NCBI GenBank assembly: GCA_964626705.1
Contig: CAZVGL010000003.1
Location: 6,543 to 70,542 of the forward strand
Reading direction: 5' to 3'
From: an uncultured Candidatus Saccharibacteria bacterium
GTDB lineage: Bacteria > Patescibacteriota > Minisyncoccia > Phycocordibacterales > UBA2163
DNA length: 64,000 bases
This document shows, piece after piece, positions 20,152-27,547 of this stretch. The position numbers were made by a program, and so were the translations under genes. Position 1 is the stretch's first letter, and every line of letters starts with the position of its first letter. The notes under the pieces are model-generated. The model was not told where the DNA came from. It was given only the letters and a program-made list of their open reading frames with translations, and searched no databases.

Positions 20152-20198
20152 CTCCTAATAGTACCGTAAAATAAGAAATGGGTCAAAAACAACAAAAA

Positions 20199-20238
20199 AT
20201 TAACGGCTCAACCTTACATCTGTAAGGTTGAGCCGTTA
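20199..20238 (-). terminator. Rho-independent terminator (TTAACGGCTCAACCTTACA/TGTAAGGTTGAGCCGTTAA) ending the sensory/surface gene block
   Basis: 19-bp perfect stem. The A-run on the plus side gives a U-run on the minus transcript. Confidence 0.65.
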
Positions 20239-20262
20239 ATTTTTCACTAGTATAAATAGTTT

Positions 20263-20637
20263 TTATTCTGCTAATCTCTCTTTAACTATTCTTACGAGAT
20301 CGTCTACTTTTGTTTTATCTTTTACTAAATAAGTATATACTCCACCTTCCATAGCATCAGCTATCTTATTAATATCACTTACTATTGATAATACGATAAT
20401 ATTTAAATCTTTATACTTATCGTTTTCTCGAATTTTTTTGAGTATCTCTATTCCATTTATTTTTGGAAGCAATATATCAAGAAGTATTAGATCAATATTT
20501 TCTGATTCTATTAGGCTCAGACCTTCTTCTCCATCAGATGCATGTAGAACATTAAAACCAGCTTCAGAAAGTGACTCTATAAGCATTTTTGATAATATCT
20601 CTTCGTCTTCTATAACTGCTATTGTCTTTTTCTCCAT
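20263..20637 (-). CDS. Stand-alone response-regulator receiver (CheY-like) protein
   Basis: Receiver-domain signatures (acidic pocket DEE, phospho-acceptor in ILLDILLPK, conserved K). No output domain. Confidence 0.8.
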   Translation of the reverse strand: MEKKTIAVIEDEEILSKMLIESLSEAGFNVLHASDGEEGLSLIESENIDLILLDILLPKINGIEILKKIRENDKYKDLNIIVLSIVSDINKIADAMEGGVYTYLVKDKTKVDDLVRIVKERLAE

Positions 20638-20646
20638 AATCCTAAA

Positions 20647-22354
20647 TTAATTAATATCTTTTAATTCTTCACTGATATTTTTCTTTATTCTAATCGTAGT
20701 ACTCTTGATCTTTTTGACCAGATGTTCGATCTCTTGTTTCGGACTATCTTTAAGTTTGGTATCTTTAAGCCACTCTTCAAGACCGGTTACATCATTTGAC
20801 AACATTGTCGTAAATTTATCTATATCCCTTGCTACCACGATTTGATACGCATTACGTTTTTTTTGATTTTCAACGTATCTAAGCAAAACAACACTGATAC
20901 CAGACACCACAAGAAGTATAACAAACAAGAGTATTTCAAACCACCCTATGTCTAAAAAGCCAACAGAAAGGATTATTTTACCTTTTATTTTAAAAGTCTG
21001 AGCTTCTGTCGGAAAACTGACAGCTCCACGCTCATCCCTAGCATTAACCTGTAGAGAATACTTACCAAAAGAAAGAGGTTCTTCTACTATTATTTCCCAG
21101 TTACCAAGCTCATCGCTCAAAGTAGACCCTGTGAACAGTTCTTGATTATTTTTGTTTTTTATTGAAATATCTAGAAATATGCTCGGCATTGTCTTACCTG
21201 AAGCAAAAATGAATTCTCCTTGTGATACAGACCTTGTAATGAAATCAACAATAGGTGTCGGAAGTGGAATAATTTCAAACTCCGCATTGTCTTCTACACT
21301 ATTGCCAGCCATGTCTTTTACTCGCACAAGAAGTTGGTGTATCCCAGGTTTTTGTATAGGTAATGCAATAGTAGAGCTTGCAGATATTATTGGCCCAATT
21401 CCATCAATAAATATTTCTGTTTCAGATAATCCAGACAGAGCATCTTGCGTTTCAAATGTTATATTAGGTGTGGGATTATCACTTGCTTCATTGTCTATTT
21501 CGATTTCAAATGGAAGTGGAGCTGTCTTATCAATGGATATTTTATAATAAGCTAGTTCACCCCAACCAAGACTGTTTTTAAATTGCGCCCTTATGTACCA
21601 AATGCCTTCCTCCAAGCTTCCAAAGTTTTTTCCATTATATAATTCATCACTCTTGTCTCCTGATTTCTGGTCACGACTTTGACTTAATCTTGTTGCAACT
21701 TGAATAATATCAGGAGAGAGTTCCCAAAGCGCTATAACCTCTTCTGTGTGTGAATACCATTTTGATTGATCTGGATAAAGCTGTACTGTTATTTCTGGTT
21801 TTTCTGGCAAATCACTAGCAACGACAGCTTGTCTTACTACTTTCTGTGGTTGAACGATCGCTTCAACTACTTCTATAACAGGTGCTTGTGTAGGAGTGAT
21901 TGATTTAGTGCCAATATTTATATTTAAACCTTTTGTAGTAGATAACACATTAGTACCTTTTCCATCACTTGCTGTTATTACTGCATTTGATACAGAAATA
22001 TCTGCAGAACCTACACCTATAGCCTTAAACTTAAGTTTTAAAATCTGAAGCGAATCACCAGAAATACCCTTTGCTGTACCCCCTACGAATTGAATAGTGC
22101 CATTTTCGTTTGAGATAGTTGGCTCTTCAACCCAGAAATTAAATGCTGAATCAATTTTATTAGCATCGACAAGTTCTAATATGTTAGACGGAAATCCTAT
22201 AGTTGCTTGTGATGCATTTATACTATCACCTTCTGAGTCTATCTTTAGGTTTACCTCAAATTCTTGATTAATACCAAAATTAGAACCGCTTGTAGAAAGA
22301 TCGATAGTTGCCGCTTCTGTTAAACCAAAGTTTATAAAAAATATTACAAAAATG
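20647..22354 (-). CDS. Membrane-anchored surface protein with an N-terminal cohesin-like domain and a C-terminal TM anchor. The start codon is uncertain.
   Basis: Open frame runs from the stop at 22390-22392 to 20647 with no ATG/GTG/TTG upstream of 21948. N-terminal hydrophobic stretch LISLIFVIFFINFGL. Cohesin-like beta-sandwich pattern (FEVNLKIDSEGDSINASQATIGFPSNILELVD...ISGDSLQILKLKFKAIGVGSADISV). C-terminal TM ILLFVILLVVSGISVVLL. Confidence 0.5.
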
Positions 22355-22372
22355 AGTGATATTAAATATGTA

Positions 22373-24079
22373 TTAAATACTAAATGCTCTTAAAAAGATA
22401 CTAAAATCTGATATATTAATAATTCCGTCACCGTCTAAGTCAATCTTTGACTTAAGATCTGACTTTTCAGACCCCCATCTAAACAAAAATATACTCCAAT
22501 CAGTAATACCTATCTTACTATCACTATTAAAATCAGCTGACGGAATACTTAATTCGTTTAGTTTAAATGTTCGTGATATTGAAAAATTACTAATCTTTGA
22601 TTCTGTTGCAGAGCTTGCTATTTGTCGTGCACGAACTGCATGACTTCCTACATTTAAATCATCTGTATCAATACTAAATTCATAGAAACCTTCTGTATTT
22701 GATGTAGTTTCTTTTTTTGTATCACTTATCTCTAATTCTACAATATTATTTGGTGCTGCGTAACCTAAGATATGCACATTTGCTCCTTTTTTTATAATAC
22801 TGTTTTCAAACCCAACTGTAGGGGGCATAAAGATATCCTCTACCACTAAATCTTCTGTGGCAAGATTAACATTAAAAGACATTATTCCAGTCTTCCTTCC
22901 ATCTTTGTCCTCAACCCTTAATGCTATTAGGTAGTCGGCTCCAAGTAATCCAAGGTGAAGTATTGAAAAAGTACCATCATCACTTACTACCGACTCTTCT
23001 ATAGGAATATTTTTATAAAGATCATCGAGTGAACCTTTTCTCAAAACCTCTATTTTACTTTTTGGATATGCTTGTCCTGACAGATGGATCTTACTTGCAG
23101 AGACTCCACCACCACCTGTTGGTATAGATATAGTTGGCTCTTCTGCTTCAGCTGAAGTCGATAAACTTGGTACATTAGATATAGCAGATTCGTTTGGCAC
23201 CTCATCGGAAGTTTTGATAGCAAAATAATATGTTGTGTCAGAACTTAGTCCAGTCACCGTCATTGACTCACTTGATCCAGCTACAGATGGTGTAGGTTCA
23301 CCTGTTGCTTCTGTAGCAGATGCCCAATTACCATCGTTAATAGTAGCTGTTGAATATCGTATGTCATAACTTGTAGCAGTACCAGATCCCGCATCATCAC
23401 CTGGAGCAGTCCAATCCAGATCAATTGTAGTTTCTGTGGCGCCAGATGTTGCTAGATCTGAAACTGCTGATGGCGCTGTGGTGTCAGATGCTGGAGTATA
23501 TGTTATTACAGCAGATATTTGACTAACTCTTGAAATTTTAGATGAGTTATTAGTCACACCGATCTCTATATCGGTACTACCACTCTTTACAATACTTAAA
23601 CCTGTATGAGATTGTGTTGTTTCCGCATATGAAGTGCCTGGAGAGATATCAACTCCAGAGTTTGTACATGATGCATCTACACATTTTCTTGTTTGTATTT
23701 TTGCACCACCTTGTTGCCTGTCAGCACAAATAGTTATATCGATTTGTGTAATTGTCGCATCGTCTGGGACGCTAGATTCATCTATATCAAATGTCTGATT
23801 CGCACCATTTGTACCCGTAGTTATATACGAAGTATCTCCATCGCTATTACTACAACTTCCACCAGAGGATTCATCAACTTCCGTATAACAAGTGGTAGAA
23901 TTACACGCAGTTCCGCCTGTATTTGTCCAATTTGCACTATCATTACCGCCGTCAGTAGTTGGACGTAATGTGCTTGTGGTATCCGCAAACACAACACTAA
24001 ATACAGAGATAGAAAAAACAACAAGAAAAATTAACAAAACTTCCCTATTAGTTTTTTTAGAGATAAAACTCTTAAGCAT
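22373..24079 (-). CDS. Secreted multidomain protein with FN3 and Ig-like domains and a C-terminal dockerin-like repeat pair
   Basis: Signal/TM region at the N-terminus. FN3 signature (DLDWTAPGDDAGSGTATSYDIRYS...TYYFAIKTSDE). C-terminal Ca-binding repeats ADFNSDSKIGITDWSIFL and DLDGDGIINISDFSIFLRAF matching the dockerin DxDxDGxIN..D consensus. Confidence 0.6.
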   Translation of the reverse strand: MLKSFISKKTNREVLLIFLVVFSISVFSVVFADTTSTLRPTTDGGNDSANWTNTGGTACNSTTCYTEVDESSGGSCSNSDGDTSYITTGTNGANQTFDIDESSVPDDATITQIDITICADRQQGGAKIQTRKCVDASCTNSGVDISPGTSYAETTQSHTGLSIVKSGSTDIEIGVTNNSSKISRVSQISAVITYTPASDTTAPSAVSDLATSGATETTIDLDWTAPGDDAGSGTATSYDIRYSTATINDGNWASATEATGEPTPSVAGSSESMTVTGLSSDTTYYFAIKTSDEVPNESAISNVPSLSTSAEAEEPTISIPTGGGGVSASKIHLSGQAYPKSKIEVLRKGSLDDLYKNIPIEESVVSDDGTFSILHLGLLGADYLIALRVEDKDGRKTGIMSFNVNLATEDLVVEDIFMPPTVGFENSIIKKGANVHILGYAAPNNIVELEISDTKKETTSNTEGFYEFSIDTDDLNVGSHAVRARQIASSATESKISNFSISRTFKLNELSIPSADFNSDSKIGITDWSIFLFRWGSEKSDLKSKIDLDGDGIINISDFSIFLRAFSI

Positions 24080-24100
24080 TGATTAAATTATATCAAAAAA

Positions 24101-24132
24101 GCAATAATCATGTACATGATTATTGCTTTTTT
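24101..24132 (-). terminator. Terminator hairpin (GCAATAATCATGtaCATGATTATTGC + T-run) after the receiver gene, followed by a GATATAAT box 8 nt before the dockerin-protein ATG
   Basis: Perfect 12-bp stem read directly. The -10-like box is at about 24090-24097 on the minus strand. Confidence 0.6.
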
Positions 24133-24162
24133 ATCCACAGTTAGATTATAAAAATAATTTTA

Positions 24163-24618
24163 CTATTTTTCTTTTTTTATCTCCTTTACTTCATCTGCAA
24201 GAGATATTGGTTTTTCTTCTGCTTGTTCAGCTTCAGGATGAGATTCTTTTTCAAAGAATACTTTTACTTTATCAATAATCTCAGATACTGCATGCTGAGA
24301 CTTTACAATATAATCATTTGCACCAAGCTTTAGTCCTTTTTTTATATCTTCGTCACTTCCAAGCATTGTAAGCATTATTACAGGAATATCTTTTGTAACA
24401 GGAGATTTTTTTAATCCTTCTAATACCTCAAATCCTCCTTTTTTAGGCATTAGTACATCAGAAAGTATAAGATCTGGTTTTTTGGACTGAGCTAATTCAA
24501 GTCCTTTTTCACCATCATTTGCTTCTGATACCTCAAAACCAGCTTCTTTAAGCTCTTCATGTATAACTTTTGACAATATTTTGTCGTCTTCAATAAGTAA
24601 AATTTTAATTTTAGTCAT
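24163..24618 (-). CDS. Stand-alone receiver-domain protein with a short acidic C-terminal tail
   Basis: Receiver fold (LLIEDD...DLILSDVLMPKKGG...K). 151 aa, no DNA-binding domain. Confidence 0.8.
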   Translation of the reverse strand: MTKIKILLIEDDKILSKVIHEELKEAGFEVSEANDGEKGLELAQSKKPDLILSDVLMPKKGGFEVLEGLKKSPVTKDIPVIMLTMLGSDEDIKKGLKLGANDYIVKSQHAVSEIIDKVKVFFEKESHPEAEQAEEKPISLADEVKEIKKEK

Positions 24619-24631
24619 AATTTATAATATC

Positions 24632-25012
24632 TTAATTATCTTTAAGTATACCACAAACTCTATCTATAATACCCTTCATCGTGTGATGTGATTTAAGCAA
24701 TGCGTCTGCAGCGCCCATTTTCATAGTTTCTTCAAGTTTTTCTTCATTTGCACTTACTGTAAGGATAACCACGGGAATATTTTTTGTAGAATCGTCAGCT
24801 TTTAATTCTTTTAATACTTCAAAGCCATCTTTTTTAGGCATAAGTAAATCAAGAAGCACTATATCTGGTTTTTGGGATCTAATTAGCTCTAACCCTTTCT
24901 CTCCATCAAATGCTTGGTATACCTCGCACCCTTCTTCTCGAAGTTCATCAGACAACATTCCTGATAATAATCCGTTATCTTCGACTAAAACAATTCTTTT
25001 CTTATCGTCCAT
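24632..25012 (-). CDS. Stand-alone receiver-domain protein (CheY-like)
   Basis: Receiver fold (VLVEDN...DIVLLDLLMPKKDG...K). 126 aa. Confidence 0.8.
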   Translation of the reverse strand: MDDKKRIVLVEDNGLLSGMLSDELREEGCEVYQAFDGEKGLELIRSQKPDIVLLDLLMPKKDGFEVLKELKADDSTKNIPVVILTVSANEEKLEETMKMGAADALLKSHHTMKGIIDRVCGILKDN

Positions 25013-25054
25013 AGTTATAATTTAATTATATATAATACAATTGATAATAACACA

Positions 25055-27547
25055 CTATAGCAAATCTTTCCCGCCCTCACTCTTTTTTATTTCAATAGGT
25101 AGTTCAATGTAAAATGTAGTACCTTTACCTTCATGCGAGATAAAGTCTATTTTGCCACCAAGTGCTTCTGTTGCACTTTTTGCTATATATAGACCAAGTC
25201 CCGTACCGTCTGTTTTTACAACTTTTGCATTGTCTGCTCTGTGGAACTTTTCAAACATTCTTGACTGCTCTTTTTCCGGTATCCCGATTCCAGTATCTTT
25301 TACTTTTATCATGACGTCACTATTTTTTTCAACACATACCTCTATAGATCCAGATTCTGGAGTATATTCTATTGCATTGGACACTATAGACTGTATTACA
25401 TTGCGCAAAACTTTTGGATCACTTTTTATTTCAAAATTATCTGGATGATCTTCAAATTTTAATGTTATATTCTTTTTTACCAAAAGTGGTGTTAATTCTC
25501 CTAAATAATCTTCAATGAATTTTATTAGGTCTAATTTTTCTGGTGTTACAGCAACACCTCCTCCGCTTTCAATCCTAGAAACGTTAAGTAAAGAGTCTAC
25601 AAGTTCTGACAACCTCACAGATGAAGTGTGTAGATCTTTAAGGTATTCTTTCCCTTGATCACTTAGACCAATTTCTTTTTTCAAAAACCTTTCGATCACC
25701 CATTGTATACCAGTCATAGGTGTACGAAGTTGATGCGATGCTACAGATATAAATTCACTTTTCGCACGGTCTATCTCTCTTTCTTTTGTTATATCTCTAA
25801 ACACTACAATACAACCAGTAACATTTCCGTTCTTATCTTTAAGTGGGGCCGCACTATCCGCTACTGGTATTTTCCTCCCATCTCTTTGTATCAACATTGT
25901 ATTAGATGGCATCTTTTGGTTTGTACCAGTACTCATTACATCCTCGATGAACTCAGTATTTATTTTTGTAGGATCTTTTTCATCTATAAATTTAAGTATT
26001 TTATTGTACGGCTTGCCTATAACTTCACCTCGTTTAAACCCTGAAATCTTCTCTGCTTGGGAGTTAAATACGATAATATTACGATTTCTATCTACTACAA
26101 ACACACCGTCGCCAATGTTGTGTAGAATAGAACTAACTTTTTCTTCTTCAAGGTCTGCTTTATCTTTCTCATCTTTTATATCTTCAAGAATATTAAGTAT
26201 GGCCATCTGCTGTGTCTCAAGTTTTCCCTTTTGATCCGTAATATTGTCAGTTTGATCATTAACCTTTTTTTCAATATTTCCACGCGAATCTTTTATAGAT
26301 GCTGCCATATTATTGAACGAATCACCCAACTTCCCTATTTCATCTACAGAATCAATGTTAACCCTATAGTCCAAATCTCCTTTTTCTAAAATTTTAGTAC
26401 CTTCATAAAGTTTTTCAATTGGCCCTGATATTTTCCTAGAAATAAAATATGCAAATATTATTATCAGAAACAAAGATCCAAAACTAATAAGGATCAGAGT
26501 ATTCCTTAAGTTTGTAACAGGCGCCAATATTACTTCCCTAGGTATTATTTCAAATATCACAAAGAAAGACTCATCACTAAAACTGCTTGGAAACACTTGT
26601 TTATAAGCAATAGCGTGATTATGTTTTGGCATATCAACAGAGTCAGCACCACCAGATAGAATGATGTCTGCCATTCCAGATTGTAGATTATTACTAATAT
26701 TATGCCCCGTATTTAAATCCCCTTCATTTCCCCACTCCTTATCCTTTTGTGGATGTGCAATATAAAAACCTCTTTCATCTACAATAAATTTACCTACATT
26801 ATCATAATCAATATCATTCTCTTTATAAGAATGCTTAAATTCATTTAGAAAACTATCAGCATTTATATTTGTTATTACAACCCCCTTTCTATTACCACTA
26901 TTGTCAAATATTGGTGTAGCATACCTTATTGTTGGCTTAAAAGGCGATTCTATCTCTGCCAAAATACCCTCTCTATTAAGATCTAACGGAGATACAAAAA
27001 TATTACCTCGGTCTAGTTTCATAGTATCTTTAAAATAATATCTATTAGCTTTGTTTTGTAGATTTTCTATTGAAATGATTTCGGCAGCACCATCTCTAGA
27101 ATCTACACGCACAAGCTCATTTCCATTTTCATCCAAATACCTTATTTGCATATATGCCTTATTGGATGAGGCTATTTCCATAAATATAGTTCCAAGTCTT
27201 GATGTCCATTGTTCATAAGTTGACACACCTTCAGTATCAATACCATTATTTTTATTTGCACGTATTATTCCTTGAATTGGTGGCACACCACCTAAAAACA
27301 AGACCTCTCTTTCTAGACCACTTAACACCTGATTTATCTTGTTCACATGTTGATCTACATCAACTTCAAGTTCACTCAATGTCTTGTCGAGCAGTATATT
27401 ACTTGATGAATAGAAACTAAAAAACCCAGACGTAATAAGTGGTATTATTGCAACTACTAAAAACGTAAAAAGTAATTTTCTATTTATGGAACTAAAGAAA
27501 AAATTCCTTAAGGCTAAACGTAGTTTTTTGTAGACTTTTTTTGGCAC
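25055..27547 (-). CDS. Sensor histidine kinase with a double-Cache-like periplasmic domain, HAMP, PAS, HisKA and HATPase domains
   Basis: Two TM segments flank a roughly 300-aa extracytoplasmic domain. HAMP motif (GDLDYRV...DEIGKLGDSFNNM). PAS region. H-box SHQLRTPMTGI. G-boxes DTGIGIP / GTGLGL. Confidence 0.85.
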   Translation of the reverse strand: MPKKVYKKLRLALRNFFFSSINRKLLFTFLVVAIIPLITSGFFSFYSSSNILLDKTLSELEVDVDQHVNKINQVLSGLEREVLFLGGVPPIQGIIRANKNNGIDTEGVSTYEQWTSRLGTIFMEIASSNKAYMQIRYLDENGNELVRVDSRDGAAEIISIENLQNKANRYYFKDTMKLDRGNIFVSPLDLNREGILAEIESPFKPTIRYATPIFDNSGNRKGVVITNINADSFLNEFKHSYKENDIDYDNVGKFIVDERGFYIAHPQKDKEWGNEGDLNTGHNISNNLQSGMADIILSGGADSVDMPKHNHAIAYKQVFPSSFSDESFFVIFEIIPREVILAPVTNLRNTLILISFGSLFLIIIFAYFISRKISGPIEKLYEGTKILEKGDLDYRVNIDSVDEIGKLGDSFNNMAASIKDSRGNIEKKVNDQTDNITDQKGKLETQQMAILNILEDIKDEKDKADLEEEKVSSILHNIGDGVFVVDRNRNIIVFNSQAEKISGFKRGEVIGKPYNKILKFIDEKDPTKINTEFIEDVMSTGTNQKMPSNTMLIQRDGRKIPVADSAAPLKDKNGNVTGCIVVFRDITKEREIDRAKSEFISVASHQLRTPMTGIQWVIERFLKKEIGLSDQGKEYLKDLHTSSVRLSELVDSLLNVSRIESGGGVAVTPEKLDLIKFIEDYLGELTPLLVKKNITLKFEDHPDNFEIKSDPKVLRNVIQSIVSNAIEYTPESGSIEVCVEKNSDVMIKVKDTGIGIPEKEQSRMFEKFHRADNAKVVKTDGTGLGLYIAKSATEALGGKIDFISHEGKGTTFYIELPIEIKKSEGGKDLL

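Follow-up and report, generated by a model that had tools for sequence, protein, structure and literature searches.

What allows a reading frame of 580 sense codons to stand intact when it has no codon to start it? The question is raised by two neighbouring genes in a 64,000-nucleotide (nt) stretch of contig CAZVGL010000003.1 from an uncultured Candidatus Saccharibacteria bacterium, referred to here as the window. Both are on the minus strand: gene A encodes a secreted protein, and the start-less frame that follows it, gene B, encodes a membrane anchor. The reading that we favour, with rather modest confidence, is that A and B form a surface module joined by a dockerin-cohesin contact and that B is present here as a young null or strongly reduced allele after a small deletion. 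A preliminary description of this DNA had reported a 568-amino-acid (aa) gene A ending in two Ca-binding repeats with its TAA at 22373-22375, followed by a frame open from 22389 to 20647 and carrying a C-terminal transmembrane (TM) anchor. These coordinates were reproduced on the minus strand, the second frame containing 580 codons and the anchor lying at aa 482-503. The parts of the two genes are as follows.

22373..24079, minus strand: gene A, secreted cargo protein of 568 aa (open reading frame (ORF) and translation); ATG at 24079, coding to 22376, TAA stop 22375-22373; parts in order are a signal peptide (MLKSFISKKTNREVLLIFLVVFSISVFSVVFA, cleaved before DTT), a Cys-rich head (~aa 32-196), fn3, two Ig-like domains and a C-terminal dockerin
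23204..23470, minus strand: fn3 domain, gene A aa 204-292 (Pfam PF00041, E 1e-9, 38.9 bits against a cut-off of 25)
22376..22537, minus strand: dockerin module, gene A aa 515-568, two 22-residue repeats
22499-22534, minus strand: dockerin Ca loop 1, DFNSDSKIGITD, aa 516-527
22406-22441, minus strand: dockerin Ca loop 2, DLDGDGIINISD, aa 547-558
22351..22392, minus strand: A/B junction, with the TAA at 22390-22392 that closes the B frame upstream, the gene A TAA at 22373-22375 and remnants of the former spacer
22360-22362 and 22351-22353, minus strand: ATA and ATT, the only near-cognate in-frame codons at the junction
20647..22389, minus strand: gene B open frame, membrane anchor, 580 sense codons, stop 20649-20647; parts in order are a residual signal peptide, cohesin, linker, conserved Ig-like stalk, TM helix and cytoplasmic tail
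22312..22362, minus strand: predicted residual signal peptide of B if the start is ATA, (M)SLIFVIFFINFGLTEA cleaved before A (alignment with homologue N-termini)
21910..22311, minus strand: cohesin domain, open-frame aa 27-160 of gene B (AlphaFold2 fold, Foldseek, orthologue Pfam matches)
21946..21948, minus strand: internal GTG, publicly annotated start of a 433-aa B product
21004..21168, minus strand: Big_13 Ig-like domain in the stalk of gene B, aa 408-462 (Pfam PF19077, E 3.3e-7, 31.2 bits against a cut-off of 27)
20881..20946, minus strand: TM helix GWFEILLFVILLVVSGISVVLL, gene B aa 482-503 (sequence)
20650..20880, minus strand: cytoplasmic tail of gene B, 77 aa, with the motif KKRxAYxI..RD..K and a K/E-rich helical end

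The start-less open frame is real and not a product of chance. It is +1 relative to A, opens 14 nt ahead of A's stop and is closed upstream by the TAA at 22392-22390. Its first ATG, GTG or TTG is the GTG at 21948-21946, which is codon 148 (codon 137 in the preliminary description, a miscount), and 147 start-less codons precede it. At 35% G+C a stop-free stretch of 147 codons has a chance of ∼2e-5, and the B frame is alone among the 55 long ORFs of the window in having more than 25 start-less open codons. The start-less portion aligns end to end with full-length homologues, of which there are hundreds (∼575-590 aa, covering 95-100% of the 580-codon frame, the closest 74-78% identical). The public call for this sequence (P0006, 433 aa, 100% identical, carried on 11 JGI contigs) begins at the internal GTG, a gene-caller artefact whose product would miss both the signal peptide and the cohesin; the public 433-aa annotation of gene B is wrong. 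We also rejected an alternative genetic code, since long intact table 11 ORFs across the window argue against UGA recoding.

The relatives point to what was lost. B starts with ATG in all 32 distinct loci with a visible junction, and with ATG or M in all aligned database homologues. The N-termini of these homologues read M, a K/R-rich segment, a hydrophobic core and (V/A)xA with cleavage before A, and the window has EHLVFNTY replacing the M and K-rich part. From the stop of A into B, the junctions of four relatives and of the window are as follows.

L046: TAA-T-ATG AAA AAA ...
L047: TAG-T-ATG TAT AAA AAA ...
L002: TAA-TATA-ATG AAA AAC ATA AAA AAA ...
L048: TAA-TGTATATTTAATAAA-ATG AAA AAT ATG AGA AAA CTA TTG CTA CTA TCA ...
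Window: TAA-TACATATTTAATA-TCA CTC ATT ...

L048 has a gene A of the same build (566 aa, 73% identical), and its pairwise alignment with the window contains a single clean 32-nt gap, TAAAATGAAAAATATGAGAAAACTATTGCTAC, flanked by a 2-nt TA microhomology. This gap covers 4 nt of spacer, the ATG, the MKNMRK n-region and the LLL of the hydrophobic core, with the deletion point at ∼22361/22362, between TTTAA and TATCA. Roughly nine codons at the beginning of the open frame appear to be former spacer together with the overlap with the 3' end of gene A. Judged from these alignments, the missing start would be explained by a strain-level deletion and not by an unusual coding mechanism.

Were the missing start an artefact of sequencing or assembly, a sequencing indel being among the options of the preliminary description, the true genome would have an ATG. 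Metagenome assemblies may indeed carry indels in A/T-rich low-complexity DNA, and relatives have AAAAAA runs exactly at the junction. However, the window shares exactly the same junction with JGI contig Ga0427892_000661 (L001; 100% over 9302 nt) and with ENA ERZ4199535 NODE_48430 (L045; 99.94%), and since these three assemblies come from different projects and assemblers, assembler error is unlikely. The exact 433-aa call is present on 11 contigs, and a loss of 21-32 nt is atypical of homopolymer error. We therefore give an artefact very little credence.

Another route offered by the preliminary description was a frameshift linking the two ORFs into one protein of ∼1140 aa. A programmed +1 shift between 22389 and 22376 would produce it: B is read in the +1 frame with respect to A, the two frames overlap over the 14 nt ahead of A's stop, and a covalent fusion of an A head with a B stalk is known in another lineage (P0322, described below). 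Against this, the 14-nt stretch GAGCAUUUAGUAUU contains neither a codon nor a stop context known to be prone to shifting and lacks an upstream stimulator resembling a Shine-Dalgarno (SD) site, there is no downstream RNA structure (fold z = +1.4), and no arrangement of the prfB type was found in 22389-22373. T runs in the stretch do not exceed 3 nt, hence transcriptional slippage is also unlikely. In all relatives A and B are separate genes, A with its stop and B with its own ATG. In a fused product the internal LISLIFVIFFINFGL segment would be expected to act as a stop-transfer sequence, leaving the cohesin and stalk in the cytoplasm and B with inverted topology, and the natural fusion P0322 has neither a dockerin nor a signal-like segment. 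A frameshift fusion is thus highly improbable.

The identity of the two termini was examined with profile searches and structure models. An AlphaFold2 model of the first 161 residues of B, counted from the ATA at 22362, is all-beta (predicted local distance difference test score (pLDDT) 91.3, predicted TM-score (pTM) 0.82) and forms a flattened beta-sandwich superimposable on solved cohesins. Every one of the 50 best PDB matches to this model by Foldseek is a cohesin module (E 4.7e-9 to 3e-6, target TM-score up to 0.79); non-cellulosomal modules of C. perfringens and Archaeoglobus are included, 2jh2 and 2xdh being among the best. Pfam Cohesin (PF00963) matches 8 of 29 orthologous B N-termini at E≤0.01 (best 1.8e-7), and several database homologues have a precomputed PF00963 match and are called "cohesin domain-containing protein" by NCBI, some of the proteins so named coming from Patescibacteria metagenome-assembled genomes. 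Profile searches of the PDB yielded no match for full-length B and only weak scaffoldin matches for its cohesin part (E 0.008-0.2). On the orthologue scans and the predicted fold, the assignment of the B N-terminal domain as a putative cohesin holds.

The tail of A has two ∼22-residue repeats, DFNSDSKIGITD-WSIFLFRW and DLDGDGIINISD-FSIFLRAF, each consisting of a Ca loop like that of an EF-hand (D-x-[ND]-x-[DN]-x6-D) and a helix after it. In both repeats Asp occupies loop positions 1 and 12 in all 51 sequences compared, N or D stands at positions 3 and 5 in at least 49 of them, and [WF]S[IV]FL comes after each loop. The model of this region (pLDDT 89.8) has the three helices of the dockerin fold; Foldseek returned no significant match to it. 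Pfam Dockerin_1 (PF00404) matches 28 of 30 orthologous A tails (best 3.7e-10), the NCBIfam dockerin_GC match to A is below threshold (7.8e-5), and a PDB profile search with A tails returned mainly dockerins, from E 2e-4. The C-terminus of A as a predicted type I-like dockerin likewise holds on orthologue scans and fold. The hidden Markov model searches proposed in the preliminary description therefore gave a mixed result on the window's own proteins, fn3 being found (E 1e-9), the dockerin falling just under the cut-off and the cohesin giving no match; the orthologues were positive for both, and with the predicted folds of both termini they bear out the original domain assignments.

The two genes travel together. 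A dockerin-terminated gene directly precedes B in 32 of 32 distinct relatives' loci with a visible junction, with A's stop and B's ATG separated by -4 to +76 nt (median 10), and the dockerins of these relatives have the consensus ADFNNDxxVNITDWSIFLFRWGS...IDLNGDGxIDIxDFSIFLKAMKI. The loci span Giovannoni-, Ryan-, Magasanik-, Wolfe-, Nealson-, Lloyd-, Harrison- and Peribacteria as well as other Patescibacteria. A fusion protein at locus L049, P0322 (682 aa), joins the signal peptide and head of gene A (aa 14-195, 47% identity, E 8e-54) by a Pro/Thr linker to the stalk, TM helix and tail of B (aa 180-572, 38% identity, E 1e-101); a domain scan found no fn3, Ig, dockerin or cohesin in it. A lineage with a covalent link in place of the dockerin-cohesin joint is what would be expected if that joint normally connects A to B, and the fusion thus supports docking of A on B as deduced from sequence. 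A and B most likely join through a dockerin-cohesin contact, and the earlier picture of a membrane-anchored single-cohesin scaffold with a secreted partner is supported by these comparisons.

We also asked whether B, having lost its start, has decayed. Since synonymous sites are saturated at 78% amino-acid identity, we used a relative-rate comparison instead of the ratio of nonsynonymous to synonymous rates (dN/dS), with nine outgroup sequences, eight sisters and 17 relatives. The p-distance of window B to the outgroups is 0.489, and that of the sisters 0.482-0.500. Window B keeps all 109 of the columns that are invariant in the 17 relatives, and has no internal stop. This absence of decay means that the lesion is very recent or that B is still under selection.

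The second possibility, that B still works, is a serious alternative to which we assign somewhat less weight. Ribosomes ending at A's UAA (22375-22373) would reinitiate at the in-frame AUA 22362 or AUU 22353, which lie 11 and 20 nt past the stop, and produce the anchor in full length, its signal peptide, (M)SLIFVIFFINFGLTEA cleaved before A, being short and uncharged but very hydrophobic; the deletion would merely tighten coupling to A and lower the dosage of B. The fully intact frame, the rate that is not raised and the retention of every family-invariant residue all fit. An SD-like motif is found upstream of only 7 of the 55 long ORFs, the starts being preceded by A/T-rich sequence, and the genome appears to initiate independently of SD sites; the junction RNA is unstructured. 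Stop-start spacings of -4 to +20 nt in most relatives suggest that coupling is the normal mode. Long hydrophobic cores in signal peptides can compensate for an absent positive n-region, and the core left in B might do so. However, this core was itself shortened by the deletion, no relative uses a non-ATG start or is without a charged n-region, and an in-frame AUA is a 1-in-3 accident, the deletion length not being a multiple of three. In E. coli, initiation from AUA or AUU reaches 1-2% of that from AUG (bioRxiv 10.1101/063800); such near-cognate starts are active, and the yield expected of B is likewise only ∼1-2% of that from an ATG start.

A non-canonical start, if used, is a consequence of the lineage-specific deletion and not a designed feature of the family. 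Genuine non-AUG starts are known in infC and pcnB, where the codon is AUU, that of infC being conserved and regulatory. In gene B, AUU or AUA are likewise the sole possible in-frame initiators, but every orthologue has ATG; no non-AUG start of the infC type is conserved among them, and the near-cognate codons of B are deletion leftovers.

We consider a null or strongly reduced B allele somewhat more likely than a functional non-canonical start, because three determinants of export and expression were struck together and no relative tolerates their loss. Several points weigh against this reading and against the module on which it builds. Continued expression would account for the intact 580-codon frame just as well as a recent null would. 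The size of the gap depends on the reference (21 nt against L002; 9 nt plus ATG>ACA against L047), leaving the exact ancestral junction uncertain while the outcome is identical. The three assemblies represent one clonal population and give no age for the allele. Pfam Cohesin has no match on the window's own B sequence at the family cut-off, and Dockerin_1 scores A at 18.5 bits as a whole protein and 22.3 as an isolated tail, against a cut-off of 22.9.

In the preferred reading of a dockerin-cohesin module with a recently damaged B allele, A would be secreted, with a variable head, fn3 and Ig-like domains and a two-repeat Ca-binding dockerin at its C-terminus. B would be a type I membrane protein that presents a single N-terminal cohesin on an Ig-like stalk, held by one TM helix that leads into a conserved cytoplasmic tail. 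With its dockerin, A would plug into the cohesin of B and so be displayed by B on the cell surface. The small deletion would have stripped B of its ATG, its Lys/Arg n-region and the first residues of its hydrophobic core, the remainder being untouched. Any leftover B protein would then arise only by weak initiation or reinitiation at AUA 22362 or AUU 22353 on an unstructured, SD-free mRNA. The residual signal peptide lacks a charged n-region, the A-A at its predicted cleavage site is invariant across the alignment, and the predicted mature N-terminus after cleavage is ATIDLSTSGSNFGINQEFEVNLK. The G..W.E motif and hydrophobic stretch of the TM region are kept across the B family, and the family alignment identifies R512, A514, Y515, R521, D522 and K525 of the tail as invariant or near-invariant.

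Among the closest known parallels are the cellulosomal single-cohesin anchoring scaffoldins of the Clostridium thermocellum OlpA/OlpC type (PDB 3ul4, 4dh2) with type I dockerins, in which a cell-bound cohesin likewise holds a secreted dockerin protein, the docking here being predicted. The modelled cohesin and dockerin folds match those of the OlpA/OlpC-type systems, and the near-symmetry of the two A repeats, with [WF]S[IV]FL after the loops, recalls dual-binding type I dockerins. The differences are considerable. B is anchored by a C-terminal TM helix with a conserved cytoplasmic tail and not by S-layer homology (SLH) repeats or a sortase signal, and an Ig-like stalk bears its cohesin at the N-terminal end. 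The cargo, with fn3 and Ig domains, has no catalytic domain; no multi-cohesin scaffoldin and no second dockerin gene lie within the 64 kb; and the host is a small-genome Patescibacterium with the genes in a two-component-system cluster. A cellulosome was ruled out on the single cohesin of B, the absence of a catalytic domain from A and the absence of any other dockerin or cohesin gene from the window. A dockerin-profile search for further cargo types returned only short fragments (60-119 aa).

Non-cellulosomal cohesin-dockerin modules are known in anaerobic methanotrophic (ANME) archaea (PMC9012536), and such modules more widely were surveyed by Peer et al. 2009, as cited in that paper. In common with A-B, these modules (Archaeoglobus fulgidus 2xdh; the Clostridium perfringens glycosidase cohesins 2jh2, 2vo8 and 2w1n; ANME archaea) are used outside cellulose degradation, often with one cohesin per protein. 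The cases described so far are scattered and differ from one close species to another, whereas A-B is a fixed side-by-side pair across a phylum-level radiation, with constant architecture and a link to sensory genes. We place the A-B system with the non-cellulosomal pairs, its modules being type I-like by fold and sequence features. Eukaryotic TMEM132 adhesion molecules (PMC6030884) have a cohesin-like domain, Ig domains, a TM helix and a tail in the same order as gene B, but have no dockerin partner, and the resemblance is architectural only. In the Saccharibacterium Southlakia epibionticum, SEML1_0315 is a dockerin-domain envelope protein, reported essential, with a proposed role in host-glycan binding or adhesion (PMC10633639). 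Compared by description only, it resembles gene A in being a dockerin-bearing surface protein of a Patescibacterium. In full-text literature on cohesin or dockerin together with Patescibacteria, the candidate phyla radiation (CPR) or Parcubacteria, we found no description of the A-B module.

The preliminary description had placed the pair inside a sensory cluster, between receiver genes (20263-20637; 24163-24618; 24632-25012), which proved correct, and the association is conserved well beyond this genome. The neighbouring features are as follows.

24163..27547, minus strand: conserved upstream sensory genes (Pfam families)
25055-27547, minus strand: histidine kinase with dCache, HAMP, PAS, HisKA and HATPase (Pfam)
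24632-25012, minus strand: receiver, 126 aa (Pfam)
24163-24618, minus strand: CheY-like receiver, 151 aa (Pfam)
24094-24133 (element 24087..24133), minus strand: terminator-like hairpin 3' of the upstream regulator gene
24116-24087, minus strand: best promoter-like site, TGTACA-18-TATAAT, overlapping the upstream hairpin
20263..20637, minus strand: single-domain response regulator, 124 aa (Pfam Response_reg), last gene of the putative operon of A, B and this regulator
20198..20241, minus strand: terminator-like hairpin closing the operon, 20-bp stem and T run

A histidine kinase precedes the A-B pair in most relatives' loci. An orthologue of the 151-aa receiver lies directly upstream of A in most of the distant loci (55-74% identical in most, 41-49% in three), and the 124-aa receiver downstream of B is common to close relatives only (L002, L046, L047 and L048). 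P0322, on an 11.6-kb contig, is directly behind a PAS histidine kinase and a 151-aa receiver orthologue (62% identical). The gene for this CheY-like receiver and the fused surface gene share 4 nt at the fusion locus (L049:4624-5004 / 5001), which suggests translational coupling of signalling and surface genes there; the window, unlike L049, has a terminator-like hairpin between receiver and surface gene. The promoter-like site of gene A overlaps a 38-nt perfect palindrome at 24095-24132 that resembles a terminator of the upstream receiver gene. Only 7 nt separate the end of its -10 box, TATAAT (24092-24087, with TG upstream), from the ATG of gene A, whose mRNA may therefore be leaderless or nearly so. 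A scan of the junction found no promoter-like site between A and B. The hairpin and promoter-like site before A and the strong terminator after the 124-aa receiver suggest that A, B and the receiver form a single transcript.

Homologues of gene A, named as fn3-domain proteins, vary in length from 450 to 1000 aa; the Ig-like matches of A in Pfam are weak, that to Big_7 included. Heads of A vary among lineages and the Ig-dockerin end is constant. The head of the Lloydbacteria orthologue P0192 (aa 33-200) is a CBM96 (Pfam E 3.8e-14), one of the carbohydrate-binding modules (CBM). The Cys-rich head of gene A has no Pfam match and only a weak, motif-level likeness to that CBM96 head (E 0.04), and we did not adopt a CBM assignment for it. 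Within gene A, the ENA contig has 10 nt (L045:281-290) where window 23864-23895 has 32 nt, which breaks the frame of A. At an assembly coverage of 2.7x this is probably a low-coverage error, and it could be a second polymorphism.

The B profile matches 1893 clusters (50% identity) at E≤1e-30, part of which are multi-repeat giants and not orthologues; among the 150 best-scoring representatives listed, most are single-stretch, full-length matches of 560-600 aa. The giants P0278 (4269 aa), P0293, P0380, P0381 and P0401 have 13-31 copies of a domain matching B residues ∼194-390, so this stalk domain serves elsewhere as a reusable repeat unit. In the single calls P0389, P0403, P0417 and P0418 (866-901 aa) two anchor units follow one another, the first short (signal peptide, cohesin-like domain, one further domain, TM) and the second a full B-like unit with its own signal-like segment; these could be genuine two-TM proteins or merged tandem genes. 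Three Harrisonbacteria loci have two tandem B paralogues behind a single A, 37-40% identical to window B (L010:1681-5045, L011:3001-6386, L037:4001-7386). In a metagenome-assembled genome (MAG), gene B is broken between cohesin and stalk (L031:4381-4392), with a stop after ∼139 aa and the match resuming 11 nt on, which is either a second lineage with a B lesion or an assembly error. A scan of metagenome contigs returned only distant relatives (37-54% identity) and no further strain-level junction, and the Saccharimonadales loci L042 and L044 have only weak cohesin-domain matches to B (27-28%). The labels of some records, such as "uncultured Candidatus Saccharibacteria" for third-party annotation (TPA) MAGs including L014-L017, L021 and L025 and "Gammaproteobacteria" for L026, look unreliable, the B proteins of these records being closest to Parcubacteria-type sequences.

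Patescibacteria are a very large, mostly uncultured group, many of which are thought to live attached to other cells, and to our knowledge their surface machinery is poorly known. The missing start is of local interest only, in that this strain may be a natural knock-down of anchor B. More interesting is the conserved module itself, a fixed two-gene cohesin-dockerin system with a constant anchor, a variable head and a link to sensory genes across many classes, for which the natural fusion P0322 provides genetic support that A and B act as one structure. As a speculation to which we attach low probability, the block of kinase, CheY-like receiver, dockerin cargo and cohesin anchor might be a signal-controlled adhesion device of Patescibacteria, in which a phosphorylated single-domain receiver binds the B tail (KKRxAY..RD..K) and alters the display or engagement of the docked head. 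If true, the device would work as an "inside-out" switch in the manner of integrins, serving contact with a host or surface, and the start-less B allele would be a natural OFF variant of it. The A-B module is in any case a concrete candidate for an attachment or envelope structure.

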